A DNA stretch of 64,000 bases, taken from NCBI GenBank assembly GCA_029762535.1, contig JARVGK010000002.1:73603-137602 (forward strand), in the 5' to 3' direction. The position numbers and the translations under genes are program-made. The stretch is from Thermoplasmatota archaeon. Its GTDB lineage: Archaea; Thermoplasmatota; Penumbrarchaeia; Penumbrarchaeales; Penumbrarchaeaceae. The stretch's first letter is position 1; each line of letters begins with the position of its first letter. This document shows positions 4,501-28,053 of the stretch, piece by piece. A model generated the notes under the pieces. It ran no database searches. It worked only from the letters and a program-made list of their open reading frames with translations, and was not told the origin of the DNA.

Positions 4501-4635
4501 GTCATGGTATTATGGATGTCGGAGAACTCAGATAAAGGAATTGGAGATGGCATCAAATTACCTGACGATGTGCATCAGGCGTAAGCAACGAAAAGTATAT
4601 CTTCATGGCGTCCATGCGTAACACGAATTATAATA

Positions 4636-6362: not shown

Positions 6363-6389
6363 AATGACTGAAAACTCGGGAAGTTCCAT

Positions 6390-8260: not shown

Positions 8261-8279
8261 ATCTTCTGGCAACCCGGTC

Positions 8280-9942: not shown

Positions 9943-10076
9943 ATCTCAACCCCGAGTTGTTCTTCCATCATGATCTCGAACTGCCTTGAGATTAGCAACC
10001 CCTTCTTCTTGCAATGCTCTTTGTATTTGTCGTATAGATCGGAATCCACGCTCAAAGTGACGTTTCTTGACGGCAT
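9939..10076 (-). CDS. ribbon-helix-helix (CopG/Arc-like) small regulator, 45 aa
   Basis: Manual translation: MPSRNVTLSVDSDLYDKYKEHCKKKGLLISRQFEIMMEEQLGVEI. Its TGA overlaps the ATG of the downstream AlbA gene (ATGA). It lies below the 60-aa ORF-track cutoff. Confidence 0.6.
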   Translation of the reverse strand: MPSRNVTLSVDSDLYDKYKEHCKKKGLLISRQFEIMMEEQLGVEI

Positions 10077-10107
10077 GTTATCACATTCACAGGTAAATGT
10101 CTGCATT

Positions 10108-10304: not shown

Positions 10305-10480
10305 TAGGATTTTCGGATAACGGACGCGGCTAACCGAAGTTCGTGGGGAGAAGGTGCTTTAGCACCCGAAGCCTTAAAATGAGGTCGAGGCTTCGGTTCC
10401 GAAAATCATCCTGCCGCCGTAGTTTTTTCTTGCTCTGTTTTTATTCATCTTTTCGTTATCCGTCGTGGGGGGTGTTCCGG
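10305..10480. repeat. structured repeat element (island family)
   Basis: Begins TTCGGATAACGGACGCGG. Hairpin GAAGGTGCTTTAGCACCC. Ends with the conserved tail CCGTAGTTTTTTCTTGCTCTGTTTTTATTCATC...GTGGGGGGTGTTCCGG. Confidence 0.5.
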
Positions 10481-10662: not shown

Positions 10663-11940
10663 TTATTGTGTCGTTCTTTTCGATCTCCTGCAATATCTTT
10701 CCTGACGTTTTTCCAACGCTTTCCCGACGCTTTCTCTGGCGATTCCTGTATATAAAAGCGGAATCGCGGTAGTGAATACCGGTCCATCCATATACTTTGG
10801 AACGCCGTCGGGCGTGTAATGAGGTAGATACTTCCCGATATTCATCATCCCGGATCCAATTTCTTCCACCCAGCTCAGTTGTGCAAAGAACTTTGCAATA
10901 ACGGGATTCTTGGAGAAGGGCACCACTTTTTCGGGGTCAAGGACTCCCTCGACCCTGTAGTTGCTTGCGTTAGTGGTTTCTACACGATCTTTGTAAATTA
11001 TCAATCGGGCTGGATGGGCGTTCATGTATTCGCGATGCACCAGAAAATTAGCAATAACTTCCCGGAATATCTTATCGCGTAGACTTATCCTAGCGTCTCC
11101 TTCCAGGTAAAATGGGTCTGGAAGATGTTTGGCAATAAAGGCCATGAGCCGGTCGTATGCTTCAATGAGATTGCAATCTATACGGTCGCGGTCGTCATAA
11201 TGGTCCATCTGAACCCGGCGAACCATGGCATCGATCTTGTAATGAGGTAAAACACTCCGTATGGTCTCGTCTTTTCCCAGTAGCAGGATGGCAGCAAGGG
11301 TATAGCCCTCATTCCCGGTTTCCTGATCCTTTCTGAAAAGCCCGGCCTTGAGCAACAGCTGCTCATCGTCCAATTCTCTCCACGGATGATTCGGTCCACG
11401 GGTTAATATGAGATTACGAAGCCTGGGCAGCATGTCCAAACGCAAATCGTCAAGAGTTGTGGCAGAATAAATTATGTTCTCGGTGTATGTCGCCCGCTTC
11501 CGGTTACTAATCTCCGCGATCCGGTGGGGCTGGGTCACACGGAAATCGCCATCATTGCTTCGGTCGAAGACAACACCGTTGGTTTTATGCACCTAGGAAC
11601 TAGCAGGCACTGAAATATGCATGATCTTCTTTCCATCAAGAACATGTATAACGGGATGGAGGATGAACGGCGGATCCAGCTTTTGAGTATTATTGGAAAG
11701 ATTGACCATATCTGTTTTCATCTTATCGATGGATTGCGGATCGATTCCCAATACCCTTCCTTGATCATCAACTCCGAGAAGAATGTCTCCTCCGTCCCGG
11801 TTCAGCATTGCACATATTGTTTCGAATAAACTCGTGGGAAGAGATTTTCTTGCTTCCTTGTATTCTACCCGGATACCCTCGCCCATTGCAAGCAGATGTT
11901 TAAGGCGAATTTGCATCGGGTCACTTTGCATTTTTCTCAT
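10663..11940 (-). CDS. AlbA_2 + HATPase_c_4 protein (paralog), interrupted by an in-frame TAG at 11593-11595 that is immediately followed by GTG
   Basis: ORF 11593..11940 ends ...HISVPASS. It is followed by TAG, then in frame by GTG CAT AAA (VHKTNGVVFDRS...), which continues ORF 10663..11592. Confidence 0.6.
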
Positions 11941-12070
11941 CCTCTTTCATCTGTTCTTCCATCATGATCTCGAACTGTCTTGATATGAGCCAACCTTTCC
12001 TTTTACAGTAATCTCTGTATTTATTATAGAGATTTTCATCGAACCTTAAAGTAACGTTCTTTGAAGGCAT
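11921..12070 (-). CDS. ribbon-helix-helix small regulator, 49 aa (paralog)
   Basis: MPSKNVTLRFDENLYNKYRDYCKRKGWLISRQFEIMMEEQMKEDEKNAK. Overlaps the start of AlbA gene 2 by 20 nt. Confidence 0.55.
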   Translation of the reverse strand: MPSKNVTLRFDENLYNKYRDYCKRKGWLISRQFEIMMEEQMKEDEKNAK

Positions 12071-12101
12071 TTTAATCACTCACTGCACATACTTACAAAT
12101 G

Positions 12102-12139: not shown

Positions 12140-12445
12140 CACGCCCGTTGAGCAAGAAAAATTTGGGTGAGCGGAGCGAACCATTTAACCGGTGTTATAC
12201 TGGGTTGCGAAGCAATCTGGCACATGTCGTTATTCTCTTTTCGTGTGGGTTAAACGAAGGCGGCAGGAATAGATGATTTTCGCTTGTCTGGCCAATGCCG
12301 GGAGACGAAAAATTTCATTTAACGGACGCGACTATGCGAAGTTGCGTAGCGAAGCGGAGCAATTTGGGTCGAGCGAAGTGCAACGAGCGAGCCGTATAGT
12401 CGCGAGTTATCCGATCCGAGCTATGCGAGGATGAGCATCTTTGAT
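12140..12445. repeat. structured repeat elements (two units)
   Basis: 12150-12200 carries AAATTTGGGTGAGCGGAGCGAACC. 12290-12440 carries TTTAACGGACGCGACTATGCGAAGT...AATTTGGGTCGAGCGAAGTGCAACGAGCGAGCCGTATAGTCGCGAGTTATCCG. About 100 nt are near-identical to the 13185-13290 copy. Confidence 0.65.
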
Positions 12446-12458
12446 GCGAACGTCGGGT

Positions 12459-12881
12459 TCAGTGGTTTTTATTAGCTATATTAAAGAGTTCTTTCGTCGA
12501 GAATCTCTTTAATTTGTCCTGTCTATCAAAATCCTTATCTTCAGTCCATATCCCACTTGCCTTAACCGCCAAACCTAAAGCTAGAAAGGGCGTATCTTTA
12601 ATATCGATATCTTTCATGATTTCTTCAGCGAGTTCAAGATGATCTATGAATACATCCGATGGAATCAATTCGATTCTCTCGAGAATTGATAATAATATGA
12701 TGTCAAATTCTCTATCGGTTAACTTTGATTTTTCGATTAGGTAATGTCGATATTTTTCTATCTCTGTTATTACGTAATCTGGAGCAATAAAATTGAACTC
12801 CTCATTGAAGATGATCTTTCTTGTTTGTGAATCTTTGATCAATCCAGCCATGATTCTATTTGAATCTATGACCATCTTCAT
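12459..12881 (-). CDS. PIN-domain protein (VapC-like toxin)
   Basis: 140 aa. Begins MKMVIDSNRIMAG, with the first PIN Asp in the D-S-N context, plus later acidic residues. Overlaps the antitoxin gene by 4 nt. Confidence 0.6.
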   Translation of the reverse strand: MKMVIDSNRIMAGLIKDSQTRKIIFNEEFNFIAPDYVITEIEKYRHYLIEKSKLTDREFDIILLSILERIELIPSDVFIDHLELAEEIMKDIDIKDTPFLALGLAVKASGIWTEDKDFDRQDKLKRFSTKELFNIANKNH

Positions 12882-13111
12882 GCGGATTGCTTCCTTTTGT
12901 AATGTTTGTAGATGCCTTCTTTGACCTTTTCATCGAGAGCCATGACTTCTTCTTCAGTCAGTTCGCTCTCTTGAGTCAAAGAGTCAAGCAATGCCAACTT
13001 CTTTGCATAATCGGATATTGCCCTTCTAGCAATCTCGCTCCATCTGATCTCGCTGTGTTGTTTCATGATCACATGAATATCTGAAGGTACCGATAGGGTT
13101 ATGTTGGGCAT
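12878..13111 (-). CDS. antitoxin-like small protein (partner of PIN toxin)
   Basis: 77 aa, immediately upstream of and overlapping the PIN gene. The N-terminus MPNITLSVPSDIHVIMKQ is beta-strand like. Confidence 0.5.
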   Translation of the reverse strand: MPNITLSVPSDIHVIMKQHSEIRWSEIARRAISDYAKKLALLDSLTQESELTEEEVMALDEKVKEGIYKHYKRKQSA

Positions 13112-13184
13112 ATGATTACCACACAGGCATATGTGATATCACATATTTATTAATTGCCGTAACCACTGAACCCGATGTCGGATA

Positions 13185-13345
13185 ACGGACGCGACTATGC
13201 GAAGTTGCGTAGCGAAGCGGAGCAATTTGGGTCGAGCGAAGTGCAACGAGCGAGCCGTATGAGCGCGAGTTAAGTTCCCCGAGCCGAAGTTATCCGTAAG
13301 GATAACGTAGGCGAGAGCGCAGCGTGGTCCGGAGTTATCGAAGAT
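13185..13345. repeat. structured repeat element
   Basis: GGATAACGGACGCGACTATGCGAAGT...AATTTGGGTCGAGCG...CCGTATGAGCGCGAGTTAAGT. Followed by GAAGTTATCCGTAAGGATAACG and the tail GGCGAGAGCGCAGCGTGGTCCGGAGTTATCGAAGATAACG. Confidence 0.65.
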
Positions 13346-13541: not shown

Positions 13542-13571
13542 TAATATTCTCCTGTAAAAATGCTGGTCAAT

Positions 13572-13740
13572 TGAACTTAACGGACGCGACTATGCGAAGT
13601 TTGCGAACGTAGTGAGCAAATTTGGGTGAGGGGCGGGCCGAGCCCCGAACCGCATAGTGGCGTGTTATTCGCCCCGAGCCGTAGGCGAGAGCGCAGCGTG
13701 GTCCGAAGTTATCCGAAGGATAACGAAGGAAGTTGAGGGG
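13572..13740. repeat. structured repeat element
   Basis: CTTAACGGACGCGACTATGCGAAGT...AAATTTGGGTGAGGGGCGGGCCGAGCCCCGAACCGCATAGTGGCGTGTTAT. The tail is GGCGAGAGCGCAGCGTGGTCCGAAGTTATCCGAAGGATAACGAAGGAAGTTGA. Confidence 0.65.
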
Positions 13741-13742: not shown

Positions 13743-14141
13743 CTAATGCCCGGATAAGAATTCGGAAGATTGAATGATCCTCACGCTATCATATTGCTTG
13801 ATCTTCAGTAAATGATTATCTCCCGAAATGATATATTCAGCCTTTCCTAAAATTGCTGTTTCCAAGACCATGTTATCCTTTGGATCATCTTCGATGACAT
13901 ATAGAGAATCTGTTATGAAAACGAGATCAGACATCAAGATCAAACTTTGAATGAAAGCATGGATCTTATCATCCGGGACATGGAACTTTTTTCGAAGAAC
14001 CATCTCAGTTTCTGAAAGAATCTGTTCGGAGGTGACAGATCTTATTTTTCCTGACTTGCATCTTGTCAATAATGACCTTTCATTCCCATTCCAGAAAAAG
14101 CCAGAGATGAGAATGTTCGAATCAAGGACTATCCGGACCAA
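13743..14141 (-). CDS. PIN-domain protein (VapC-like toxin)
   Basis: 132 aa. MVRIVLDSNILISG is a classic PIN N-terminus. Ends at TAG. Confidence 0.6.
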   Translation of the reverse strand: MVRIVLDSNILISGFFWNGNERSLLTRCKSGKIRSVTSEQILSETEMVLRKKFHVPDDKIHAFIQSLILMSDLVFITDSLYVIEDDPKDNMVLETAILGKAEYIISGDNHLLKIKQYDSVRIIQSSEFLSGH

Positions 14142-14144
14142 AGA

Positions 14145-14429
14145 TCAATTCTCCTTGGATCTGATTTCCTTTATTGCTTTAAGTACATCTGATTTCTTTA
14201 ACATCTTCTCCTTGGCGAAATCACTTCCCCAATGGAGAAGATTTTGGAAATCCTCATCGGTGGGGATGTCGATCTTTTTCAGGACTATCGTTTCGTTCTC
14301 TCCATACATGGCAAAGAACTCACCGGGTTTGAATCCGAGGAGTTCGCGAAGGTCTTTCGGTATCACGATCTGCCCTTTGGAGGAGAGCCTTGTGATGGTT
14401 ACTTCGGACATGGTAATAAGTAAGACCAT
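14145..14429 (-). CDS. AbrB/MazE/SpoVT-family antitoxin
   Basis: 94 aa. The swapped-hairpin motif is SSKGQIVIPKDLRELLGFKPGE. Directly upstream of the PIN gene. Confidence 0.6.
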   Translation of the reverse strand: MVLLITMSEVTITRLSSKGQIVIPKDLRELLGFKPGEFFAMYGENETIVLKKIDIPTDEDFQNLLHWGSDFAKEKMLKKSDVLKAIKEIRSKEN

Positions 14430-14469: not shown

Positions 14470-14715
14470 TTAAACCCCCGAAATTGCGAATAACGTCCTG
14501 GGGATATGGGAAGTTGGCCGAAGGCCAATTTGGGTGAAGGGTCTGCAAGACCCGTAACCTCATATCCCCATGTTATCTTCCCCGAGCGATAGCGAGAGTG
14601 CAACGGGGTCGAGGCACGAAGTGCCGAAGAAGTTTGAAACCCTGCCGTAAATTCCGTTGTTGCCGTAGTTTTTTCTTACTCTATTCATCGTTCACGTTCT
14701 CCGTGGGGGTGTTCC
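14470..14715. repeat. structured repeat element
   Basis: Stem TCCTGGGGATATGGGAAGT...CCTCATATCCCCATGTTAT. Apex CCAATTTGGGTGAAGGGTCTGCAAGACCCGTAACC. Conserved tail ...CCGTAGTTTTTTCTTACTCTATTCATCGTTCACGTTCTCCGTGGGGGTGTTCCG. Confidence 0.6.
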
Positions 14716-14720: not shown

Positions 14721-17318
14721 TCATGCTTTCAACTCTAATTTTTCATTAAATGCTCCAATGAAATTTGTTTTCAGATCTTCATTGTAGAATGGAAGCCCGA
14801 TAATTTTGTATTTCGTATTTTCTGCCAGTATCTCGATTTGATAATTTCCTTCAATGTTTGTTAGGAATTGCTGTTTCCAGTCATCTTTTTCAAGTAAGTG
14901 ACTTCCTTTCGGTTCGATGAAAACCTGGTAATAGAGAATTTGTTTGGTTTTTTTCTCTTTTAAGAATAGGACAAAATCTGGTTCAAGAGAATTTCCATCT
15001 GAAAAGCGATAAAGCTGGAAAATTTTCTGGTTTCTAAGTAGATATATATCTGAATATCTTTTTTGTAATTTATCAATTGCATCGTTTATGAATCTTACAA
15101 AGTATTTCTCTTCTGATGTTCCATAATTTTCTTCATATACATACCAGTCCTTGTTTTTTAGGTCTAATCGTAAATCTAGTTTTAGAGTTTCACTCATCCC
15201 AATACCGATTTCTTTGTCAGATGTGTCATTTACTGCGATATTGATTATTTTGTCTTCTACTAAATCTTTAATTTTGCTTGCTTTGAATAATATAGTCCCG
15301 ACATATTCAGTATAACCAGATTCGATATTGCTTTGAAGTTTCTTCAAAACCTCTGTACATATTTCCAGTTTATCATCACAATTGAGTGAATCTAATTTTG
15401 TAATTGAAGTCGTTACCTCTACCTGAACATCTTTTAAAGCTTCAATGAACTTGCTGATAGATTTTGATTTAGGGAAATATTTTTTCAGGTTATTAAATTT
15501 GTAAAAATCCAACCTGGTTAGAGATTTTCGCATAATTTGAATTCCGAAGTCGTTCAGTTTAAAAATCTTTGATCTTTTCTCTTCAACATCTTTCTTCTTT
15601 TCCCCGTTGAATATAGTAGAATCTCTAACATATCCTGTTCTGAGACCAATTTTATACAATTTATCGATGTCCAAATCTGATATATCCTTGATTTTAGTTC
15701 TATCTGATTTTTTCTTTTCGTTGATGAATATCAGGCCATTAGACCAAAAATCTGATTTCTTAAACCCATCTTTGACTTTCAAATGGATTTCTCGCTTTTC
15801 CGGTGGCATGATGCCAGATTCCACCAAAGCTGTAGTCAATTCTTGAATGTATCTTGGGTTATGGGCACTGTGGTAATAAAGCTCTTCAAGAATTTTCAAC
15901 TCGTTGTTTGGTTCCTCATCGTATTTTCTCTTGAATCGCTCCTGTTCATCTGTTATTGTGAAAGGAAAATATCTAGCGCCTCTCCCGATAAGTTGGGCTT
16001 CTGCGATGGTCGTTTTACCAGGCTTCCCTGCTTTTGCATCTCTAGTATCATAAAGTCTTACAATGTCAAATAGATTGAGAACATCCCAACCTTCGTTAAG
16101 CATACCGACTGCAAAAACAACCCGAATTTCGTTATCTTTATCCTCAAGCGAATTAACTAGTAACTGTTTCTTTTCACTCTCACTTTTAGAATTGACTGAT
16201 AAACACTTATTCTCATGAAATTCTTCTTTAATCTCTGATACCAAATTCTCCAATGTAATGTCATTTTCTTCAAAATAATTAAAAGCCGTATTAAGAATCG
16301 ATTTTTGTTCAACATTGTTTTTTATTTTTGATATGTCGCTAATTTTCAAGGATTTGATCTTTTTCTTAAATTCATCTTCAATAGTGGTAGATTCATCAAT
16401 GGTTCTGGATTTCAACAGGATTACTGGCTTAATAAATTTCTTATGCTTTTCTGCAATCTTTCGTCTATATTGACTTAGGATGACTGACTGTAATGTCCTT
16501 TCTATTGGCTTTAAATCTGCCTCCATCACTTTGACTTCCTTTGAATACCCGTCTAATCTAAACTGTTTTAATGAGTAATCATAGATTATTTTACTATCGT
16601 ATTTATCTCTAATTGCTGGATGACTCAAATCAACGGTGGCGGTATACTCCAGCATGATATTTCCCAGGTTTGAATTGAAGATATTATTTACGGTATGTTC
16701 CCAGGTAGTTTTGGCTAATTTTTCTTCCTTACCCAATTTATTCTTTGTCCAAGCATTGATATGGTGGGCTTCATCGGAAATGATTACGATTTTTTTATCC
16801 TTGAAGTCCTCGTAAGTCATGCTGTTCTCGCGCGGGGTATTCATGAAACAGTGAAGCCCCTGGATTGTGGTAAAATGGATATTGATCGCATCAGGGTTAG
16901 CACCCTCGAAATTTTCTACCGGACTAATGAAAACCTCTTTTTCTCCAAATTTTATGTGTTCGTTGAACAGATATTTTGATGAAAGTAGATTTAAGAAATT
17001 ATCTTTAGTCTTTTCTATGATGTTGGTACTATTCACAAAGAAAAGAAAATTCCGATAACCTTTCTCATAAAGATAGAGAATATTGGCGGCCATCAATAAT
17101 GTTTTTCCGCTTCCAGTGGCCATGTGAAACAGCAATTGCGTTGGTTTGATTCTCCTTTTATCTTTTTCATAATTATAAATGAATCTGCGTATAGCTTCCA
17201 GTTGATATTCTCTCAATTCAAACAAATGATTCAGATTATTTGTAATATTGTCTGGAATCTCAGTACCCAGCAAGCCCTGTTCTGAAAGAACATCATACGT
17301 TTCCTTCAAAGTGGGCAT
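14721..17318 (-). CDS. Type III restriction-modification system restriction subunit (Res; SF2 helicase-nuclease)
   Basis: 865 aa. Helicase motifs LREYQ..., MATGSGKT, VISDEAHH. Positioned immediately downstream of the mod gene, with only a 1-nt gap. Confidence 0.7.
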   Translation of the reverse strand: MPTLKETYDVLSEQGLLGTEIPDNITNNLNHLFELREYQLEAIRRFIYNYEKDKRRIKPTQLLFHMATGSGKTLLMAANILYLYEKGYRNFLFFVNSTNIIEKTKDNFLNLLSSKYLFNEHIKFGEKEVFISPVENFEGANPDAINIHFTTIQGLHCFMNTPRENSMTYEDFKDKKIVIISDEAHHINAWTKNKLGKEEKLAKTTWEHTVNNIFNSNLGNIMLEYTATVDLSHPAIRDKYDSKIIYDYSLKQFRLDGYSKEVKVMEADLKPIERTLQSVILSQYRRKIAEKHKKFIKPVILLKSRTIDESTTIEDEFKKKIKSLKISDISKIKNNVEQKSILNTAFNYFEENDITLENLVSEIKEEFHENKCLSVNSKSESEKKQLLVNSLEDKDNEIRVVFAVGMLNEGWDVLNLFDIVRLYDTRDAKAGKPGKTTIAEAQLIGRGARYFPFTITDEQERFKRKYDEEPNNELKILEELYYHSAHNPRYIQELTTALVESGIMPPEKREIHLKVKDGFKKSDFWSNGLIFINEKKKSDRTKIKDISDLDIDKLYKIGLRTGYVRDSTIFNGEKKKDVEEKRSKIFKLNDFGIQIMRKSLTRLDFYKFNNLKKYFPKSKSISKFIEALKDVQVEVTTSITKLDSLNCDDKLEICTEVLKKLQSNIESGYTEYVGTILFKASKIKDLVEDKIINIAVNDTSDKEIGIGMSETLKLDLRLDLKNKDWYVYEENYGTSEEKYFVRFINDAIDKLQKRYSDIYLLRNQKIFQLYRFSDGNSLEPDFVLFLKEKKTKQILYYQVFIEPKGSHLLEKDDWKQQFLTNIEGNYQIEILAENTKYKIIGLPFYNEDLKTNFIGAFNEKLELKA

Positions 17319-17319
17319 G

Positions 17320-19326
17320 TTATAACACTCCGTAGAAGCGTTTGTTTATTTCTTTGTCCTCGTCTGATACGCCATAATCCTCGTCATCAATTTCGTTGAA
17401 ATTAACATAAAGCTGATTTTTATCCAGACACTCAATTAGGAATGCCTTTTGGTTCTCCAAGTCCAAGTCCTTGAAATCTTGAGCATTTTCATCGAATTGC
17501 TTCGGATCTATTCTGTAACTAAGGAAAGCTTCTTTTTTCATCTTATCCCATATTGCCAATAAATCTTTTATTGTCTTTGCTTCTTGAATTTTATCCATAT
17601 AGGATTCATTCCATTTCATCAGTTCACAATAAATAAATTCACCACCACCTTCCCACTTTACATATTTTGAGATACCAGATTGATCATAATTTTCAATTTT
17701 CTCTATTAATTTACCCTTTGAGTTTGCATTTCCGATAACATTTTTTAATCTCATAAGCGAATCATTTTTACCATAATCCAATTGTTCTATGCCGAGATAT
17801 TTTCTACCCAACTTATGCGCAACTGCACATGTTGTACCACTACCTAAGAAGAAATCCAAAACAATATCTCCCTTATCAGTTCCCATTTCAATTATTCTCC
17901 TTAAAAGTTTTTCTGGTTTTTTACCACGTTTTAATTTAACATTACCTTCATTAGCAATTCCTTCCCAAGGTATATCCGTCCATATATTTGATAATAAATT
18001 TGTTGGAACGAGATTACCATCAATGTTTCTAACCTTGTTATTATAAAAAGTAATTTCTTTTCCATTTAAGATATATCTATCAGTTAAATTATCTCTTCGA
18101 TTAACAAATACTTTATCCAGATTCTTCAAAGATTCTTCCTTTATGTCTAATGTTTCCTTTCCAGCATCAATGTTTATTTCTGTAAATCGAAAGACTCTTT
18201 CCTTATTATTCAAGGCATAGTCCGCTAATTCAGATAAAGTACGATTTGTTCCTAATTCTTTTTTTAAATATCGACTATTTTTAACCTTAAACTTTTCCGC
18301 AATAATATCTTTAATATTTGAATAAGTCCAATTTGATGGGTTTTCTTCAATATTGTCTATCTGAAATGAATAATTTTCATCATAATTAGTTTCTTCGTAT
18401 TGAGTGATGTACTTCCACAACTTTTTAGACTTTGCATAAATTAATATATATTCGGCACTTTCAAAAACTCCCAAATTTACAGTTTTAAAACCAGACGGAG
18501 ATCGAGTTTTTATACTAATAAGATTAATGAAATTATTATCAAATATTTCATCTAGTAATATTCTTAATCTGGATACATGAATGTCGCTAATTTGAATGAA
18601 AATGGCCCCATCCTTACATAGTAATTCTCGTGCAATTTCTAATCTGTTTTTCATAAATGTAAGCCATGTTGAGTAGTTAAAACTATCATTATACTGAAAC
18701 TCATCATTCCCTGTATTGTAGGGAGGGTCAATGTAAATTAATTTAATTTTTCCAGCATATCTTTTTTTCAATGAATGCAAAGCAAGGAGATTATTACCTT
18801 TAATCATGATATTATCTGTTGTTTTAATTTCTTCTATGTTATGCTCTCCTTTTGCATCAATCCGTTTTAAACCAGTCAATACTTTAGGATCGAATAATCT
18901 GTCAATCTCATCAGGAGCAAGAATTTCATTCCAAAATATTTCTTTGCGATTTTTTTCTTCGGGATCTTCCATTCCGCCTTCCAAAACGCAATCTTTGTAT
19001 GGCCAGGATAGAACCACTTCACTACTTTTTGTTAGGTATTCGTTTTGTGTTGTAAGTCCAATCTTGTTTTTGAAAGTGGTGTACGAATCTGGTAAGAATT
19101 CTTTGTTATCAACGAATTTCATGAATTTTTCTTTGTCAAAAATGATTGCTTTATTTACAATTTTAAAGAAATGCACTTTTAATTTTTCGTTTTCAAGAAG
19201 GAGGGAAATCAGCTCATCATCGAGTTTAAGACCAAGTTCGATTATTTTATTTTTCAATAATTTATCATCTGAAACTAAACGTTCATCCTTTTTTAATGTG
19301 TCAATCATTTCATCAATTAACGTCAT
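17320..19326 (-). CDS. Type III R-M DNA methyltransferase (Mod; beta-class N6-adenine/N4-cytosine MTase)
   Basis: 668 aa. Catalytic motif IV IDPPYNTGND precedes motif I FFLGSGTT, the beta-class order typical of Type III Mod. Its start overlaps the upstream ATPase stop (ATGA). Confidence 0.7.
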   Translation of the reverse strand: MTLIDEMIDTLKKDERLVSDDKLLKNKIIELGLKLDDELISLLLENEKLKVHFFKIVNKAIIFDKEKFMKFVDNKEFLPDSYTTFKNKIGLTTQNEYLTKSSEVVLSWPYKDCVLEGGMEDPEEKNRKEIFWNEILAPDEIDRLFDPKVLTGLKRIDAKGEHNIEEIKTTDNIMIKGNNLLALHSLKKRYAGKIKLIYIDPPYNTGNDEFQYNDSFNYSTWLTFMKNRLEIARELLCKDGAIFIQISDIHVSRLRILLDEIFDNNFINLISIKTRSPSGFKTVNLGVFESAEYILIYAKSKKLWKYITQYEETNYDENYSFQIDNIEENPSNWTYSNIKDIIAEKFKVKNSRYLKKELGTNRTLSELADYALNNKERVFRFTEINIDAGKETLDIKEESLKNLDKVFVNRRDNLTDRYILNGKEITFYNNKVRNIDGNLVPTNLLSNIWTDIPWEGIANEGNVKLKRGKKPEKLLRRIIEMGTDKGDIVLDFFLGSGTTCAVAHKLGRKYLGIEQLDYGKNDSLMRLKNVIGNANSKGKLIEKIENYDQSGISKYVKWEGGGEFIYCELMKWNESYMDKIQEAKTIKDLLAIWDKMKKEAFLSYRIDPKQFDENAQDFKDLDLENQKAFLIECLDKNQLYVNFNEIDDEDYGVSDEDKEINKRFYGVL

Positions 19327-21803
19327 TTCTTTTCCTCCTTATTATTCGAAATTAAATTCCAGTTTACGCTTCCACAATTACATCTTACGCCACTTTGTTT
19401 CATTCCATCTGCTGTAATTTTCAATATACCACCACAACTATGACATGAAAAGAGATAATATAAATCTTGAAATGCCTCTTTTATAGGTCGAAAGTCTTTA
19501 TCACTAAAGTTTATCCAATTATTAAAATGAACGTTTGCATTAATTCCCCATTGTTCAGCATATGTGCGTTTATAAATGCTAGAACGCATTGAATCTAATT
19601 CTTCAAATTTTGCCGTCTTTTCTGATTTTTCCCAGGAAACTGATGATTTTTTAGCCTTTTTAATTAAGTCCTTATATCCATCCATTAATGGTATTGTAAA
19701 ATCACCAAGATCTAGCTGGCCGTTTAATTTGTATCGTACTCGTATCTGTAATGAATCACACACTAGCCCAAAATACTCTTCCAAACCGCGTCTTAATCTC
19801 GAAGCAGCAGAAGGAACATCGTTTCTTGTCAAATCTTCTTCAATTTTACTCCAGAGGTCTGCTTGAAGATTTACTTGAGGCCCTGTATCAACTTTCCAAT
19901 TATAGAATTCAACCATGCAACTCTTATTATCAACAACTCCTTCACTTCTCATTTGATTAGCCCATGTCTTATCATGGGTTGTGATTAAAAATTGTCTGTT
20001 TGGGAAATTTGATGCAAGCACGCGACAAATATCTCGCCTATGATTCGAATCCACAGACATTATTACATCATCTAAGATAATGAGGTCAATAAGACCTTCT
20101 GCCAAACGTTCAGATAGAGCCAAATATAAACAAAGCCCCATACTATCTTGATGACCTTCACTGTGGAGGGCTTGTGGAGAAAAAGCCCCTCGGCCATAAA
20201 AATCAACTTCAAATTTTAATGCCGCCCCATCTGGTGAAATAGTCGCGGAAAAATCTTTTTCGTCTGAACCATGTAATTCTTTATATAATTGCACAAAGCG
20301 ATCATTTACATCTTTGTAAAGATTTCCCAATATAGTATCTCTGGAATATTCAAATGTATTTAACAATATCTCTGCTTTTTTATATGAGATACTTGCGTTT
20401 TTAAAATCATTTTTTGCTTTTTCAAGACCTTTTAAATTTTCTTCAAGGCGTGTTAATGTATCCCACGCAGTTTGTTCAGGGGTTATCGGTGGCGCTTTGG
20501 TTTTAACAATTTCTATTAGAGTTTGAAGATTTTGTTTAATTTCCTCAGAAATAAGCATGTGTTTTACTCTGTCGCTATCAAATTCGATCAATGGATATTT
20601 TTCGAGTGGATTAGCTAATGCTATGGATAACTGATTCAAATCTGACGAACATGTTTTCAATTGGATGCTCCATTCCTTTTCCTCAATTTTATTTAATACC
20701 TCAATTATTTTATTTATGCTTCCTCTTGTATTGTTCACACGCTTTGATATGGAATCGGACAAAGATGTAATTCTGTTTCTTTGTTGTGATATTTCTTCAA
20801 TATCAGTCAATTTTGAGGTAAGATATTCATCTAATTTACCGCTTGGCCACTGTGTATCACACAATGGGCAGTTACCCGTGTCATCGATCATAGATTTTCC
20901 AAGTTCAATTAATTGAAATCGATTGTATGTTTTCAATAATTTCGGATTCGATTTTATAGAGTTTAGAAGATTTCTAAGTTCTTTATCAAATTCAATGATT
21001 CCTTTTTGATTCTTTTCGTCAAAGGAATTATGAATATTTTGAATATCTTTTTCAAATATAGTAAGATTGACATGATTGTCGTTGATAATACTGGTAGGTG
21101 GCGTAAGGGCCTTTTTTAACGTATCTGAAGAAACCGAATTCAATTCATTACTTTTTAATGTTTTACGTAATTGATTTACGTAATCCAGTAGCATCTTTTC
21201 ATTAAATGATGTTGTTTGAATTGTTGCGTTAACCTCACCTTTTTTCTCATCTATTGCTTCTTCTTTTGTCTGCTTTTCTCTTTTAAAAGTATTTTCAATA
21301 TTTACAAATGCTTTTCTTATTATTTCAATGTCTGATATATTTAATAATGCTTGAATCTCCTGGGCACGTGTACTACCATCAGAGGTAATATATTTTAAAA
21401 TTTCTCGTCTTGTTAATACATGTTCTCCCCTCGATGCAAGGGATAAAATGGGTTCAAGATTAGGTAAATATTTTTCATCAGATACAACTAACTTAGTGGG
21501 TTGTGCCATATCTCTTTTTATTTCAATAGGAACATTAATTTTTGGAAATTGAATAACTGCACGTACAATAGCATCTTTTGGCTTGTGATCAATATGTGGG
21601 CCACATTCTTTCAATTTGATATTGCGAGTTCCCTCTCCCTTTAAACGAGAAATTCGACCTGTTAAGAGGAAATCAATGGCATCAACAACAGCACTTTTCC
21701 CTGAACCATTTGGCCCCCATATTACTATATTTTTTCCTTGGGGCGTTAGTTTTATATGGGTTATACCCCGCACATTTTCAATTTCAAGCTCAATCAGTTT
21801 CAA
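19323..21803 (-). CDS. SMC/RecF-like ABC ATPase with long coiled-coil insert and C-terminal Zn-ribbon
   Basis: 826 aa. Walker A GPNGSGKSAVVDAI. Signature-like SEGHQDSMGL. Walker B LIILDDV. H-loop TTHD. C-terminal CHSCGG...RCNCG. Confidence 0.65.
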   Translation of the reverse strand: MKLIELEIENVRGITHIKLTPQGKNIVIWGPNGSGKSAVVDAIDFLLTGRISRLKGEGTRNIKLKECGPHIDHKPKDAIVRAVIQFPKINVPIEIKRDMAQPTKLVVSDEKYLPNLEPILSLASRGEHVLTRREILKYITSDGSTRAQEIQALLNISDIEIIRKAFVNIENTFKREKQTKEEAIDEKKGEVNATIQTTSFNEKMLLDYVNQLRKTLKSNELNSVSSDTLKKALTPPTSIINDNHVNLTIFEKDIQNIHNSFDEKNQKGIIEFDKELRNLLNSIKSNPKLLKTYNRFQLIELGKSMIDDTGNCPLCDTQWPSGKLDEYLTSKLTDIEEISQQRNRITSLSDSISKRVNNTRGSINKIIEVLNKIEEKEWSIQLKTCSSDLNQLSIALANPLEKYPLIEFDSDRVKHMLISEEIKQNLQTLIEIVKTKAPPITPEQTAWDTLTRLEENLKGLEKAKNDFKNASISYKKAEILLNTFEYSRDTILGNLYKDVNDRFVQLYKELHGSDEKDFSATISPDGAALKFEVDFYGRGAFSPQALHSEGHQDSMGLCLYLALSERLAEGLIDLIILDDVIMSVDSNHRRDICRVLASNFPNRQFLITTHDKTWANQMRSEGVVDNKSCMVEFYNWKVDTGPQVNLQADLWSKIEEDLTRNDVPSAASRLRRGLEEYFGLVCDSLQIRVRYKLNGQLDLGDFTIPLMDGYKDLIKKAKKSSVSWEKSEKTAKFEELDSMRSSIYKRTYAEQWGINANVHFNNWINFSDKDFRPIKEAFQDLYYLFSCHSCGGILKITADGMKQSGVRCNCGSVNWNLISNNKEEKK

Positions 21804-21993
21804 GTTCTTCCCTCGAAGTAGTTTTTAATACGCTGATAATTTTTTTAGTATCAGCTAATTGTCCTGTTGAATTAAGTTCACGAAGCTTATTGATGGTCAC
21901 CACATTAAATTCATCTTTATCATTGAGGTCTGAAAACATTTTATCAAGTATGTGGTCAATCAATGAAGATGTTTGTATTGTTTCGGGAGTCAT
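21790..21993 (-). CDS. small 67-aa protein, function unknown (operon partner)
   Basis: ORF MTPETIQTSSLIDHILDKMF.... Its ATG overlaps the RHH TGA (ATGA), and its 3' end overlaps the ATPase start by 14 nt. Confidence 0.45.
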   Translation of the reverse strand: MTPETIQTSSLIDHILDKMFSDLNDKDEFNVVTINKLRELNSTGQLADTKKIISVLKTTSREELETD

Positions 21994-22130
21994 TTATTTA
22001 CCTCCTTCATCTGTTCTTCCATCATAATTTCAAATTGTCGGGATATGAGCCACCCCTTCTTCTTACAGAATCCTTTGTATCGTTCGTAAAGGTCTTCATC
22101 AACACTGAGGGTTACGTTCTTTGAAGGCAT
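21990..22130 (-). CDS. ribbon-helix-helix small regulator, 46 aa (third paralog)
   Basis: MPSKNVTLSVDEDLYERYKGFCKKKGWLISRQFEIMMEEQMKEVNK. Confidence 0.55.
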   Translation of the reverse strand: MPSKNVTLSVDEDLYERYKGFCKKKGWLISRQFEIMMEEQMKEVNK

Positions 22131-22161
22131 GATAATCACATTCATCTCCAAATGTCAGCAA

Positions 22162-22174
22162 ATGTATATAAGTA
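22162..22174 (-). promoter_or_regulatory. putative TATA box for the RHH-ATPase-Mod-Res operon
   Basis: Minus-strand CTTATATAC about 35 nt upstream of the RHH ATG. Confidence 0.3.
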
Positions 22175-22189
22175 TTCGCTTTTTCCGTT

Positions 22190-22620
22190 TCTATTCGTTG
22201 TTCGGAACACCCCCCACGTCCATAGAGTAAGAAAAAATTTGGGTATTCGCTTTGCGAATCCGTTTAACATCCGTTAGCCGAGAGTCTGGACTTGTCCAGA
22301 TTTTGGTGGTTCTTTCCGTCTTGTTTCCGTTAAACGAAGGCAACAACGTCATGAATTTACGGTCTCCTTTTCATAGGCATGGTTTCAAATTGAAGATAAC
22401 GGAACGCGGGTATGCGAAGTGAATATGTTTCCAGTGCGGTTCCTCAGCAGAGTATTCATTTGGGAGAGCGAGTGCAACGAAGCGAACCGCATACCCGCGT
22501 GTTAAGTCCTCCGAATGAAGTTATCCTACGGATAACGAAATGAGAATGCAATGAGATCGAGCACCGCAGACCGTTAGGTTGAGGAGCGGAGAAGTTGGCC
22601 AGCCAAGAACGTTGTTCGGG
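22190..22620. repeat. structured repeat elements (two units)
   Basis: 22200-22330: AAAATTTGGGTATTCGCTTTGCGAATCCGTTTAACA. 22390-22620: GATAACGGAACGCGGGTATGCGAAGT...CATTTGGGAGAGCGAGTGCAACGAAGCGAACCGCATACCCGCGTGTTAAGT. Followed by GAAGTTATCCTACGGATAACGAAATG and the tail ...GAGCGGAGAAGTTGG. Confidence 0.6.
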
Positions 22621-22832
22621 ACACGGTGGATTTTTTACTACCAATCTACCCCACAAGGGTTATAGGTCGAGGGTGTCTTGCTTGTAAGTCGAGGGGTTTG
22701 AAATACTTGTCAAACCAAGATTTGACCATGGCGAGGTTTACTATCTTTTGGGTTATCGTTCTGACCATTATTATTTTAGAGTTGCAATATGATTTGTTCA
22801 AATTTTCTGATGAATTCGTAAGTAAAAGAGAT

Positions 22833-25800
22833 TCAATCCTCCTCCTTTATTGGTTTGATGGTTCGAAGGTTCAAAGAAAAAGATCGCCCCTCGATATTTT
22901 CTTCTGGGATATCATCATATCTCGTTATAATAACCTTATCATCAACTTTATCACTGAGGTTTTCCACATTCCATAACTCCCATCGATCCCCACCTTCTTC
23001 CTGACTTAAAAGGAATTCCACATATTCCCTAGAGGTTATGTTTACAATTTTGGAAGAACCTAAATGTGCCTTGACTTCGATCTTAATTTGTTCTCTATCA
23101 CGAATAGCAATGATATCATAGCCTGGATTCTGTTTGGGCATTTGTTCAACTTCGAATCCTTTTAATTCTAACTCTCTTTGAGCAAATGATCTTCCTTTAG
23201 TTTCTATCATCTCATTGTCCTCATATGATGTTCTGTTCCCAGATTTGCCACCACCACCGCCACCAGATGAACCCTTAGTTTCCTCATCAACTCTCTCCTC
23301 TGTATTAACTTCATATTCAGAGTCGTCATCCTTTAATTGAATACCTTCATCTTCCTCTGAATCTGGAGTTCTTTCTTCTCTATTTTGCTCATCAAGTAAT
23401 TTTTCCTTATTGTCTTCTTCACTTTTTGTCGGTTGTTTCGGCTTTTTAGGAAGCATACCAGGAAATGGCTTCTTCGATGGTGGAGTTGACTTTTGTTGAT
23501 CAGAGTCTTTGTGTTTTACATAGTCGTTATTGAATTCTAAAAAAGAGATATCGATCTGTTCATCTGATATTCCGCTGGAAGTCAATTTTTCTCGTCTTTC
23601 GTAATCATTATTACACCTTAAAAGATTTTCATAAGTGTCGGCTTCTCCTGGCACTCCTAAATAAAACGATATTGATCGAGATATTGTAGTTACACTTTGT
23701 TTATCTTCACTTATGAATATTGTTGAACCAACAATGTAAAAATCTCCGGATATTTCGGTTTCATACTTATCAAGTAGTATCAATTTTTTTCGAATTTCCT
23801 TTTTTACTTTAACTTTGATATTTTTAATTCTTTGAATCAATTTCTGATGATCTGATAGTTTATCCGATCTTATCACATATATGTATGAAAGACTGTCAAT
23901 TAGATTTTTCGCCAATTCCGGTTTCAATTGTTTCTCATCATCATTTGTCTCAATTATTTCTTCCTTCAATATATTCTTATCACTAATTTGACGTTTTCCA
24001 AAATACTTACTTACAAACTGGTGATATCTTCTAGATATATTGAAAAAATAAACATCATTATTAAAAGCATTTTTAATCTCCACATCATCATTAATGAATA
24101 TCTCTTTGCTACTTATAATTTGAAATATATTGCTTCTTTCACATAAAAGGGGACAATCATGAAGCAATAATTCAGGAAGTGCTACCATCAAACTATTTGT
24201 TGTATCTAAACATCTTTCGTAGATTTTCATTATTTTGAATCTTAATTCTCGATTATCATTTATATCTTCATCTGAAATGAATTTTATTAATAGGTTGGAT
24301 AATATTTCTTTCCATTCTTCAGGTTTTAATTCATCAATATTTGTTCTAATAATTTTCACTTTATTCTTTAACCAATGAAAAATATTATCCTTTGAACTCT
24401 CAAAAAGATTTAAATTGATAACTGGTAATAAATACCCTATTTCAAAATTATCTTTTTCATTTAATATCCAACATTCTTCCAATGGTTTAGGATCTAGATA
24501 ATGTGTAAGAGGAGGTATGAACTTTGTTTTTAAATCAAACCACCATGATGCATCTGAGTTTCCATAATATAATGCTCTGTTGTATGGTCGATAGTGTACT
24601 CGAATATTCATATATTCTTCATAGTATTCCCAATTGTTTGCTATTAACTTTAATAAGGATATTTTAGATTTTTCAGGCAATTCGTCTAAATTTATTTTAT
24701 CAAATCTTTTATTATAACTGATTTTTTCAACATTATTATAATCTTCATTCACATGTATCGGAATTTCTTCTGTAGAAATTAATCGGGGAAATGTTTTACA
24801 CCCTAACCATCTTAAGATATCTTGATCAATTATTTTCTCTAAGCTATTGTTTTCTTTTTGTACCCATTGTATATCGTAATGATTGCGAAATAATGAGTTC
24901 AAATCACTATTGCCCCATTCTTTTCCCATATATCCAAATTTGGCTTTTATCCATATAACATCTTTTTTCCCCTTCCTTCTAGATGGAATTGGACAATTTC
25001 TAATTCCTACGGGTGCATTTTCTTCTTTCATCAACCATTTATTTTTATAGATATATCGATAATATATTGAGGGATTATCTTTTTGATTCTTGTTCCTACT
25101 ATCCCAATAATTCTCAATAGCTTTAATTAAAGCTTTTTCTGTAACATTTTCAATTCTCTCTACACCCAATGTTGCTAGGATTTTGTTGACTGAATGATGG
25201 TTTTCCAATAACTTATCCCCAAACCATTCATCAACAAACACTATCGGCATCCATTTAGGTACGAGATTTTTCTTGTCTTGATCAGATTTCCAAGTGATGA
25301 TTTGACCCTTTGAATTGGCAATTGATATCAGATGATTACCAACAGGAAGTATTGGTAGACTTTTTATAATCTCAATTTTCTCCTCTTCATTGATTTCATC
25401 TGAATCATGATTAGCCCAATTAGAGAGCCATTTCCAACAAGTCCAAATCCAATCAATATTTCCTGTATTTTTAGATGACTCTTCATTGATTACACTTAGT
25501 AACGTATTATCATCAATCAAACTGCAGTTCATGGATTTTAAAACGTTATATGAAACTTCATTCTCCTCATAACTGAAATGTAACAAGTTGTCACTAATAT
25601 TTGATGTATTTAAAATTTTACGGGCGTTTGTCAAATCACATGTTGTTGATATAAGCTTTATATCAGAGAAATTTAATAATTTTTCTCCATTAATATTGCC
25701 GAATTTTAAAGTGTTCTTTGAATAATCAACAATCACATCCCAAAATAATTTGGTGATTTCATGACTGTTTCTCTCCTCAAATGGTGATAACAATGTAATA

Positions 25801-27252: not shown

Positions 27253-28053
27253 ATGAATGTTTCCGAAAAGGGCAGGGAGAGAATGCTGGCTCGGCTGGAT
27301 GAGGAGATGAGGCTTCGGAAGTATTCGCCTGCGACAATGAAGCAGTATCTCGGATTCATCAAGAGGTTCCTTGATTCCGGATCCGATCCCCGGAGCTTCA
27401 TGCTGGGTCTCTCCGACAGATGCTCACGATCCACGGTCCGATCCGCTTACTTCTCCCTGACGTTCTTCTATCGATATGTCCTTCATCAACCCTTCGACGA
27501 GGGGATCCCCCTCGCAAAGCGCGGTGGGAGGCTTCCAACGGTACTCAATCGCGAAGAGGTCCATTCCATGATCGATAGCGCCGTGAACGTTAAGCACAAG
27601 GTCCTGCTGATGCTTCTGTATTATGGTGGCCTAAGGCTCAGCGAGGCTCGATCCCTGCGCTGGGAGGGTCTCGATTTCGAACGGGGGATCATCCATATAA
27701 AGCACGGGAAGGGGGATCGGGATCGGGTCGTCTTTCTCCATTCCAGGCTTGCAGAGGCGCTTTCCGTATTGGGGGTTAAAAGCGAAGGTTGCGTATTGAT
27801 CTCTTCGGTCTCCAAAGGAGCCTATACACCAAGGGGTATCCAGTTGACTGTCGCGGATATCGCTAAACGGGCGGGGATAAAAAAGAGGGTCAGTCCCCAT
27901 ACGCTTCGGCACAGCTTCGCGACCCATCTCCTTGAGGCCGGGGCTGACGTCAGGCACATACAGAAGCTTCTGGGGCACAGGAACCTGTCGACAACACAAG
28001 TATACACCCACATCGCCGACCGGGAAATGATCAGGATAGTTTCCCTGCTCTGA
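27253..28053 (+). CDS. tyrosine-type site-specific recombinase (Xer/XerA-like)
   Basis: 266 aa. R..., HTLRHSFATHLLEAGADVRHIQKLLGH, and the catalytic Y in STTQVYTHI. No IntI-type extra domain. GC is like the host. Confidence 0.75.
   Translation: MNVSEKGRERMLARLDEEMRLRKYSPATMKQYLGFIKRFLDSGSDPRSFMLGLSDRCSRSTVRSAYFSLTFFYRYVLHQPFDEGIPLAKRGGRLPTVLNREEVHSMIDSAVNVKHKVLLMLLYYGGLRLSEARSLRWEGLDFERGIIHIKHGKGDRDRVVFLHSRLAEALSVLGVKSEGCVLISSVSKGAYTPRGIQLTVADIAKRAGIKKRVSPHTLRHSFATHLLEAGADVRHIQKLLGHRNLSTTQVYTHIADREMIRIVSLL

Follow-up and report, generated by a model that had tools for sequence, protein, structure and literature searches.

Five coupled genes behind an archaeal promoter

We analysed a block of five genes on the minus strand (positions 14721-22151) of a 64,000-nucleotide (nt) stretch of a contig from a Thermoplasmatota metagenome-assembled genome (contig JARVGK010000002.1, positions 73,603 to 137,602), hereafter the window. 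In the direction of transcription, a small ribbon-helix-helix (RHH)-like regulator gene is followed by a gene for a 67-amino-acid (aa) protein, a gene for a Rad50/SMC-class ABC ATPase with an effector-like C-terminal domain, and the mod and res genes of a Type III restriction-modification (R-M) system (Table 1). Each of the five genes is real and intact, and translational coupling joins them into a single operon, which a conserved archaeal promoter precedes. A first-pass annotation of the sequence had proposed this gene order, with stop and start codons overlapping at the junctions, and both were confirmed from the open reading frames (ORFs) and their translations: the RHH and 67-aa genes share an ATGA, the 67-aa and ATPase genes overlap by 14 nt, the ATPase and mod genes again share an ATGA, and a gap of 1 nt separates mod from res. 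The ORF list also holds a 53-aa version of the regulator with a TTG start; its homologs all begin at the ATG. The ATPase gene does start at a TTG, and the N-terminus read from it, MKLIELEIENVRG, agrees with the family consensus.

The TATA-like box that had been noticed 5' of the regulator gene is indeed present and is kept in nine RHH-led operons with differing cargo, as is the whole promoter/operator head, TTTATATACATTTGC-N5-CATTTG-N8-GAATGTGATTA-N-CATG. This head and the RHH gene behind it are common to R-M operons, to operons bearing the small protein and the ATPase, and to two Schlafen-type cassettes of the window. The RHH protein itself has a beta-alpha-alpha sequence pattern, and its matches are all sub-threshold (RepB-RCR_reg 0.007, RHH_5 0.02, ParG 0.05, Arc 0.83). 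Upstream of the promoter, the conserved non-coding leader resembles window positions 12140-12310 as well as parts of two other loci (L104, 6120-6760; L039, 9230-9620), and a 52-nt stretch of it is 96% identical between the Thermoplasmatota window and L039, an Argoarchaeum contig. Rfam gave no match in the non-coding stretch 22100-22900 nor elsewhere in the island. The block is AT-rich, as had been claimed: its GC content is 0.29-0.35, that of the surrounding AT-rich island 0.27-0.43 and that of the flanks 0.5-0.6. No tRNA was found at the island borders.

Table 1. Features of the operon, its boundaries and the recombinase, in window coordinates. Residue conservation refers to 40 diverse ATPase sequences, among which invariance was assessed.
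Feature	Position	Strand	Description
attC-like palindrome, upstream cassette boundary	22388-22514	plus	nhmmer family; single-stranded DNA (ssDNA) fold z = -3.5
Conserved non-coding leader	22200-22387	minus	about 170 nt; 5' of the RHH promoter, between attC-like element and promoter
Archaeal-type promoter	22131-22171	minus	TATA box TTATATA at 22165-22171; operator-like repeats CATTTG...GAATGTGAT immediately 5' of the RHH ATG
RHH-like regulator gene	21990-22130	minus	46 aa, ATG start at 22130; controller gene native to the Type III R-M operon
Left direct-repeat copy	21989-22007	minus	AAGGAGGTAAATAAATGAC; 19 nt; RHH 3' end and start of 67-aa gene; 17/19 against right copy; 1 of 300 shuffles scores equally
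67-aa ORF	21790-21993	minus	acidic helical protein, isoelectric point (pI) 4.7; conserved ATPase partner
ATPase (Rad50/SMC-class ABC ATPase, effector-like C-terminal domain)	19323-21803	minus	826 aa; TTG start
CPLC, zinc-hook-like CxxC	20859-20870	minus	aa 312-315; invariant; apex of antiparallel coiled coil, between helices 287-305 and 323-372 in the model
HEPN-like helical domain	19452-19865	minus	aa 647-784; R671, R746, E750, W752 and H759 invariant; E675 in at least 90%
C-terminal four-cysteine zinc ribbon	19356-19451	minus	C787, C790, C808 and C810 invariant; three-stranded sheet in both models
Recombination scar, right direct-repeat copy	19322-19340	minus	AAGGAGGAAAAGAAATGAC; last five ATPase codons (KEEKK and stop) and ATGA-coupled mod start
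Type III Mod	17320-19326	minus	668 aa; beta-class N6 methyltransferase
Type III Res	14721-17318	minus	865 aa; superfamily 2 helicase with C-terminal PD-ExK-type nuclease motif
attC-like palindrome, downstream cassette boundary	14482-14585	plus	136 nt past the res stop; nhmmer family; ssDNA fold z = -5.6
All attC-like elements	3687-3751, 4236-4341, 10311-10346, 12311-12419, 13175-13282, 13569-13677, 14482-14585, 22388-22514		
Tyrosine recombinase, XerA/IntI-like	27253-28053	plus	266 aa; divergently transcribed, at the AT-rich end

The small protein and the ATPase form an autonomous pair

The first-pass annotation had read these genes as an obligately co-translated composite system, a reading that did not survive comparison with other genomes. 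The ATPase has 769 detectable homologs, nearly all of about 820 aa, which span archaea and many bacterial phyla; the best 120 are 49-67% identical to it, and the members in 80 species-level genomes 38-66%. In these 80 genomes a small ORF of 55-75 aa lies immediately upstream of the ATPase gene, usually overlapping it by 4 or 14 nt, and an iterated hidden Markov model search found the upstream ORF homologous to the 67-aa protein in 64 of the 74 loci where one was found. The small partner is thus conserved, as had been supposed, and the proteins of its family are acidic (median pI 4.8).

There is no third conserved gene. When 1064 neighbouring ORFs from the 80 loci were clustered by BLAST, the small protein was the sole conserved neighbour, and in tblastn searches of the same loci the window Res had no match while the window Mod had just five, all weak and non-adjacent. 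The genes upstream of the pair in ten loci include glycosidases, HydF and peptidases, and those downstream UvrB, BipA, MoxR, a McrB-like protein, an Eco57I-like enzyme and a Tiamat-like protein. Among 99 neighbouring proteins of 31 loci, PADLOC recognised Type I and Type II methyltransferases, AbiE, ZorD and mad2/3/8, with no recurrent partner. The pair is also carried on plasmids of cultured Phaeobacter, Rhizobium, Sphingomonas, Mesorhizobium and Halorhabdus, where RefSeq annotates it solely as 'hypothetical protein' and 'AAA family ATPase'. It is, then, an autonomous and horizontally mobile two-gene module, most copies of which stand alone, often amid housekeeping genes.

Among the same 99 proteins (loci L001-L031), mad3 was matched by five (best 3.7e-52), mad2 by two and mad8 by two, which suggests that MADS systems lie near the pair in a few genomes. 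Membership of the ATPase in MADS was considered and rejected: its own mad3 match (5.7e-17) reflects generic similarity of the ABC head and skips the coiled coil, and its NCBIfam MAD3 score is 17 bits against a cutoff of 420. In one further locus (L064, 3195-8873) a TmtA-like gene lies directly downstream of the ATPase homolog.

The host is an independent Type III operon carrying an insertion scar

The assignment of the two distal genes to a Type III system holds, Pfam and PADLOC agreeing on it as they do on the SMC/Rad50-like nature of the ATPase. Mod matches Pfam N6_N4_Mtase (8.1e-47) and TypeIII_RM_meth (8.6e-23) and PADLOC MTase_III (7.9e-186), and its DPPY (motif IV) stands ahead of FLGSG (motif I), the order of a Type III Mod. 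Res, encoded directly after mod as in Type III systems, matches Pfam ResIII (4.4e-30) and PADLOC REase_III (7.8e-130, profile positions 24-860 of 873), and has the nuclease motif EPD...EPK at its C-terminus. Among 63 metagenomic loci that encode relatives of the window Mod, at least 13 have a homolog of the RHH gene immediately before mod, and none has the ATPase or the small protein. The genes for RHH, Mod and Res, with their promoter and RHH controller, are therefore a recurrent, independent and mobile Type III R-M operon.

The closest relative of this operon, L104, encodes an RHH protein 91% and a Res 90% identical to those of the window, and it lacks the pair. Aligned by blastn, the two loci match over the promoter and RHH gene (window 22183-21988, 91%), over the N-terminal part of Mod (19340-18608, 81%) and over the C-terminal part of Mod with Res (17637-14581, 85%); the 2.65 kb between the RHH and mod genes of the window are absent from L104. 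This insert is flanked by a 19-nt direct repeat. In L104 the RHH gene ends in ...AAGGAGGAAAAGAAATGAC, encoding KEEKK and stop with the mod ATG inside the ATGA, and the window ATPase ends in ...NNKEEKK and stop. All 19 bases of this end are identical to the RHH/mod junction of L104, with the alignment running on into mod (0 of 300 shuffles). The ATPase/mod overlap can thus be equated with the old RHH/mod overlap because the junction is identical at 19 of 19 positions: judged from this alignment, the coupling of the ATPase to Mod is inherited from the RHH/mod junction and is not an adaptation for pairing the two proteins, and the last five ATPase codons are RHH-derived. A second, independent scar was found in L150, where about 50 nt of the RHH 3' end lie between the ATPase gene and an Eco57I-type methyltransferase gene (0 of 300 shuffles); in L149 and L039 no significant recombination scar was detected. 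The window thus offers a base-resolved example of how a nested operon originates, with the coupling between two unrelated systems inherited from a regulator/methylase junction, and it cautions that overlapping stop and start codons are poor proof of obligate co-function.

The central target-recognition region of mod (17637-18608) has no nucleotide similarity to L104, in spite of flanks that are 81-85% identical. On sequence it looks like a target-recognition-domain swap, which would imply a different methylation specificity.

The pair recurs inside methylation-based defence operons

In the subclade of the window, whose closest ATPase relatives are 60-66% identical, the arrangement is varied. 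L149 has an RHH gene (79%), the small gene, the ATPase gene, a gene for a 745-aa N6_N4 methyltransferase and a ResIII fragment. In L150 the RHH (81%), small and ATPase genes are followed, after the RHH 3' remnant, by an Eco57I/N6_Mtase enzyme gene and an S-subunit-like gene. L039 has an RHH gene (81% aa identity over the tblastn match) joined by ATGA to the small gene, then the ATPase gene and, after 2 nt, the N-terminal remnant of a frameshifted gamma-class methyltransferase. L001 has a decayed RHH gene, the small gene and the ATPase gene. L151-L156 have no RHH gene, and their downstream genes are unrelated, bar an HsdS-like start in L153 and L154. An R-M methylase or its remnant therefore stands right after the ATPase in four of the five RHH-bearing loci, the window included, and three kinds of R-M system are involved. 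The linkage to Type III R-M that the first-pass annotation looked for elsewhere does recur in L149, but it is not general over the 80 ATPase loci; and since the L149 Mod is just 27% identical to that of the window, the two arrangements arose separately.

A further embedding occurs on the Halorhabdus tiamatea plasmid pHTIA (L145, 2024-14454), where pglX and pglZ of an annotated BREX-5 system enclose the pair, with a gap of 2 nt to pglZ. From the shared sequence we infer that the repeated precise placement behind RHH genes came about by recombination through the common RHH head; selection for co-function may also contribute.

The methyltransferase N-terminus in L039 (GQYFTSPSIAKFM, 12466-12620), truncated and frameshifted and two bases past the ATPase stop, looks like what is left of a decayed R-M operon that once followed the pair. 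On the haloarchaeal plasmid pHTIA an IS66 transposase lies upstream of the BREX-5-embedded pair.

A Rad50-like ATPase with a HEPN-like C-terminal domain

The sequence motifs reported for the ATPase and Mod, GPNGSGKS, LIILDD and CHSCGG...CNCG in the one and DPPY before FxGxG in the other, were all read in the translations. Pfam assigns the ATPase to SMC_N and AAA_23. Walker A (G30-S37) is invariant, with P31 in at least 90% of sequences, as is Walker B ILDD (576-579), with I576 in at least 90%; the ABC signature HSEGHQDS (547-554) and H610 are likewise invariant. In a full-length AlphaFold2 (AF2) model (pLDDT 80.9), residues 1-155 and 519-646 form the two parts of the head, and residues 157-305 and 323-515 an antiparallel coiled coil of about 360 aa that carries the CPLC loop at its apex; a helical domain (647-784) and a three-stranded zinc ribbon (795-816) follow.

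Foldseek matched this model best to Rad50, SMC and cohesin heads and also listed the Lamassu protein LmuB (9hqx, E 3.5e-9). A sequence-profile search of the PDB gave archaeal Rad50 as the best match (7.9e-11), and the PDB sequence search found Rad50 and SMC with no LmuB. The best PADLOC model is LmuB PDLC03859 (2.7e-27), which aligns to aa 1-637 over profile positions 3-597 of 611; the other LmuB models match more weakly. Many ATPase homologs also just reach Pfam AAA_13, the PrrC/RloC family, through the ATPase part only. The match to a known system that was sought in PADLOC and in the AF2 model thus exists as far as one LmuB model and 9hqx go, but no LmuA accompanies the ATPase and the small protein is unmatched.

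The helical C-terminal domain is basic (pI 8.5), whereas the small partner is acidic. The domain carries R671-x3-E675 within the first of its long helices, and an invariant His opens a helix further on, an arrangement that, by analogy, recalls the triad of PrrC and RloC (PMC2610378). A profile of this domain gathered 873 cluster representatives (50% identity); most of the best 150 listed are proteins of about 820 aa in which the domain is C-terminal, and those that are shorter resemble fragments. Scanned in isolation against Pfam and PADLOC the domain gave sub-threshold noise only, and against the PDB a profile search returned nothing and Foldseek nothing significant. The modelled architecture as a whole, an ABC head, a coiled coil tipped by CxxC, a HEPN-like domain and a zinc ribbon, suggests that of the anticodon nucleases RloC and PrrC.

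A probable nesting of two defence systems

We read the locus as two nested defence systems rather than as one new four-gene machine, because the pair usually lives alone. Taken as a whole, nesting and mechanism together, this explanation seems to us fairly probable. That the systems are independently mobile and nested, with an insertion at the RHH 3' end, we regard as highly probable, whereas the RNase and abortive-infection mechanism is a tentative proposal by analogy. The first-pass annotation had itself allowed for a stand-alone system that merely sits beside an independent R-M system. This is largely what we found, since the pair is mostly solo, the relatives of Mod lack it and the ATGA is an inherited scar; the stand-alone system, however, is itself undescribed, and it lies repeatedly inside methylation-based defence operons.

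The two-gene module (2.65 kb) most probably entered the R-M cassette by recombination at the extreme 3' end of the RHH gene. In the mechanism that we propose, an ATPase dimer would sense an infection cue, either DNA ends or damage or the loss of restriction or of a linked system, and an ATP-dependent rearrangement would unleash the RNase-like C-terminal domain, so that translation would halt and abortive infection follow. The small acidic partner may hold the basic effector domain latent or serve as an adaptor. Embedded behind the RHH promoter, the pair is transcribed under the control of the R-M operon, and therefore the two layers are co-regulated and move together, the pair possibly acting as a second line when restriction fails. 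Whereas the anatomy of the block, the conservation and autonomy of the pair, its insertion scar and its recurrent embedding are shown by the sequences, we infer from RloC, PrrC and Lamassu (PMC2610378, PMC3458546, PMC12663957) that the C-terminal domain acts as an RNase, what triggers it, what the small protein does and whether the pair communicates with Mod or Res. PrrC is the paradigm of a back-up that fires upon blocked restriction (PMC2610378, PMC3710099), and a back-up role for methylation-based defence is plausible here by the same analogy; Lamassu senses DNA ends (PMC12663957), which makes DNA-end sensing a plausible trigger for the pair.

Several observations weigh against this explanation. 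Sequence profiles link the C-terminal domain neither to any HEPN family nor to the nuclease region of RloC and PrrC, and AAA_13 aligns at profile positions 20-579 of 713 only and not at all to the isolated domain. In that nuclease region the residues are arranged as Arg-x3-Glu-x36-52-His (PMC2610378), whereas here 83 residues separate R-x3-E from the His. The canonical HEPN motif Rx4-6H (PMC3710099) is absent, the surroundings of the His being E-Q-W-x-x-N-x-x-V-H with no Arg 4-6 residues upstream. The domain could instead be a non-catalytic scaffold, like the helical C-terminal domain of LmuA (PMC12663957). A tblastn search of 50,697 phage records found no member of the pair family. Finally, the methyltransferase or remnant that follows the ATPase in four of the five RHH-bearing loci could mean functional dependence within the subclade, and not mere nesting.

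In one alternative the pair is a PrrC-like guard. It would dock on Mod and Res, or on PglX and PglZ, be held inactive there and fire when a phage anti-restriction protein disables the complex, the linkage being functional in this subclade while other lineages are solo. The four of five loci with three kinds of R-M system, the BREX-5 embedding with its 2-nt gap, and a candidate amino-methyltransferase within 3.5 kb in about 12 of the 80 other ATPase loci all fit such a guard, and there is precedent in PrrC/EcoprrI and in RloC, which lies at Type I or III loci in 8 of 72 cases (PMC2610378). The partner systems, however, are mutually unrelated (Type III, Eco57I-like with an S subunit, BREX), so that they are unlikely to share one specific protein-protein interface; there is no methylase near most members of the family; and recombination through shared RHH sequence can account for the recurrent placement. 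We think a docked guard unlikely, if still worth serious thought. A bolder version would make the pair a dedicated guardian of methylation-based immunity that homes to the regulator/methylase junction, with RHH-derived repeats as homology arms, that also enters BREX, and that surveys the integrity of the host system and, once phage anti-restriction proteins have disabled it, fires an RNase under zinc-hook control. We consider this somewhat less likely again. If true, the pair would be a counterpart of PrrC in archaea and bacteria, one that has a targeting mechanism of its own and a small regulatory subunit not described before.

A derivation from Lamassu is a poorer prospect, and we hold it to be quite improbable. 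Here the small protein would be a miniature LmuC, the ATPase would be LmuB-like, and the C-terminal bundle would be a docking domain of LmuA type, not a nuclease, with killing supplied in trans or lost. The ATPase does match nearly the whole of the LmuB PDLC03859 profile, and LmuB 9hqx is among its structural matches; moreover, LmuC precedes LmuB, long LmuB proteins have a CxxC, and the C-terminal domains of short LmuA proteins are helical bundles (PMC12663957). Against this stand the lack of a conserved LmuA-like effector gene beside the pair, of any LmuC match for the small protein and of LmuB in the PDB sequence search, and the invariant R671, R746, E750 and H759 together with the zinc ribbon, over 873 clusters, suggest catalysis or nucleic-acid binding over docking.

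The composite system of the first-pass annotation, in which the ATPase and small protein would be integral subunits of a four- or five-gene machine, gating or sensing for Res and Mod, and the coupling would serve stoichiometric assembly, now appears very improbable. All its junctions overlap or nearly do, and one further locus, L149, repeats the order RHH, small protein, ATPase, Mod, Res. Yet no Res homolog lies near any of the 80 ATPase loci and neither member of the pair near any of the 63 Mod relatives, L104 lacks the pair although its Res is so close to that of the window, the ATPase/mod ATGA is inherited, and L149 has a separate origin. A housekeeping paralogue in DNA repair or chromosome maintenance (Rad50/SbcC-like), present in a mobile island by chance, is the least credible account: RefSeq attaches a 'double-strand break repair' label by electronic inference and the best PDB sequence match is Rad50, but no Mre11/SbcD-type partner accompanies the family, whose distribution over the domains is patchy (50-66% identity between archaea and bacteria). 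Its members are found on plasmids and within defence islands, and that of the window sits in the AT-rich island.

Relation to known systems

In kind, what we describe is already known: ABC-ATPase/HEPN proteins occur in R-M loci (PrrC and RloC; PMC3710099), and cassettes nested in other defence systems have been reported (bioRxiv 10.1101/2024.01.29.577857, PMC12839542). The ATPase resembles RloC in size class (826 aa, against 658-897 aa for RloC), in the ABC head split by a coiled coil, with the ABC motifs and coiled-coil CxxC zinc hook by which RloC is recognised, and in an all-helical C-terminal domain with R-x3-E and a later invariant His; like RloC it is patchily and horizontally spread and is occasionally placed inside Type I or III R-M loci (PMC2610378). 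It differs in that RloC is a single gene whereas the pair has a conserved small partner, in its extra C-terminal zinc ribbon, and in a C-terminal domain that has no detectable similarity to the RloC/PrrC nuclease region, the wider Glu-to-His spacing and no Rx4-6H. With PrrC/EcoprrI, of Type Ic R-M, the pair shares the embedding of an ABC ATPase with a HEPN-type protein in an R-M operon (PMC2610378, PMC3710099). PrrC, however, is about 400 aa long, without coiled coil or zinc hook, and is essentially always in Type Ic R-M, whereas the pair family is mostly solo and otherwise in Type III, Eco57I-like or BREX systems.

In Lamassu (LmuA-LmuC-LmuB; DdmABC), too, a small gene stands directly before the gene for an ATPase derived from SMC/Rad50, and the ATPase of the pair matches an LmuB model. 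The pair nevertheless has no separate LmuA, its candidate effector being fused to the C-terminus of the ATPase, and the 67-aa partner, though placed before the ATPase gene as LmuC is, is far smaller than LmuC and has no similarity to it. We have filed the pair as a member of neither RloC nor Lamassu because the nuclease region does not align, the system is not a single gene, and LmuA is missing.

Nested defence as described for HEC and PDC candidates and for BREX auxiliary effectors also places a self-contained ABC-ATPase cassette inside a methylation-based system (bioRxiv 10.1101/2024.01.29.577857; PMC12839542). The hosts in that survey, however, are Hma, BREX, DISARM and Type I R-M, whereas here the host is a Type III system in an archaeon, and the pair family is not among the PADLOC v2 models matched strongly. 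Regulation recalls controller (C-protein) R-M operons, in which a small DNA-binding regulator also heads the operon, overlaps the next gene and has a conserved operator-bearing promoter. C proteins of R-M operons are helix-turn-helix proteins, whereas the window regulator is RHH-like, and the same regulator and promoter head also stand on the Schlafen-type cassettes of the window.

The 67-aa protein has no match in Pfam, PADLOC (2023) or NCBIfam, hence no LmuC match in PADLOC. In the same three collections the C-terminal domain of the ATPase has no family model either, and the ATPase part reaches only generic SMC/AAA models and one LmuB. Judged against these databases, the evidence suggests that the pair is an undescribed RloC-like module, although the ABC ATPase classification of Krishnan et al. 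2020 may already list the family. It would be an unnamed yet widespread candidate immune module, with its 873 clusters in archaea and many bacterial phyla, and one that is cheap to test, given the homologs on plasmids of cultured Phaeobacter, Rhizobium, Sphingomonas and Halorhabdus. Its recurrent placement between an RHH head and a methylase opens the question whether ABC-HEPN-type back-ups watch over Type III R-M and BREX in the way that PrrC does over Type I.

An integron-like array and other features of the window

The operon appears to form part of a larger, integron-like array. With nhmmer we found eight structured palindromes, imperfect, 100-127 nt long and with TAAC...GTTA ends, which all have the same orientation; the distance from a minus-strand cassette to the palindrome 3' of it is 40-320 nt (Table 1). 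Their stems covary, with 92% of cells paired against 76.7% in shuffles (0 of 500 shuffles reach the observed value; slid controls 18-48%), and the attC R-box consensus is only partly matched. Such an element occurs after res or before the RHH gene in the unrelated contigs L082, L103, L110 and L136, being after res in L082 and L103, and it also flanks related R-M cassettes in L104, L091 and L111. The tyrosine recombinase matches the integron integrase model TIGR02249 at 187 bits in two stretches (cutoff 265) and XerA_Arch at 185 bits (cutoff 220).

Judged by its sequence, the array resembles archaeal integrons (Ghaly et al. 2022, PMC9668308), which share cassettes in the same orientation, each followed by a palindrome with AAC/GTT ends, a cargo of toxin-antitoxin and defence genes, and a divergent tyrosine recombinase at one end; the attC and IntI identities are putative. 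It differs from them in a recombinase of 266 aa that scores below the integron-integrase cutoff and in an operon cassette of about 7.8 kb, far above the typical size. If the array is real, multi-gene defence operons would travel as giant cassettes in Thermoplasmatota.

The array holds further cassettes. Beside the recombinase, positions 22833-26930 (minus strand) encode a 1365-aa sacsin-like HATPase/NOV_C protein that matches PADLOC TmtA (Tiamat) at 5.8e-66. RHH paralogs at 9947-10085 and 11941-12079, with the same promoter, head pairs of a Schlafen AlbA_2 gene (9592-9942 and 11593-11940) and an HATPase_c_4 gene (8560-9336 and 10663-11592); such pairs are of the Schlafen-RNase/mini-kinase type, which has been described as a BREX-associated auxiliary effector (PMC12839542). 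Two toxin-antitoxin cassettes, one of an AbrB-family and a PIN gene (13743-14429) and one of a small RHH-like and a PIN gene (12459-13111), each have an attC-like element behind them. A host-like iron/siderophore ABC transporter segment (4600-8300, plus strand, GC about 0.54) breaks the succession of such elements and minus-strand cassettes. Elsewhere in the window, tandem repeats at 48345-49214 (period 380 nt) and 52025-52410 (124 nt) end in tRNA-Glu (49198-49273) and tRNA-Gln (52400-52475), respectively; their units contain the 3' part of the tRNA and may be integration scars or tRNA-fragment arrays.

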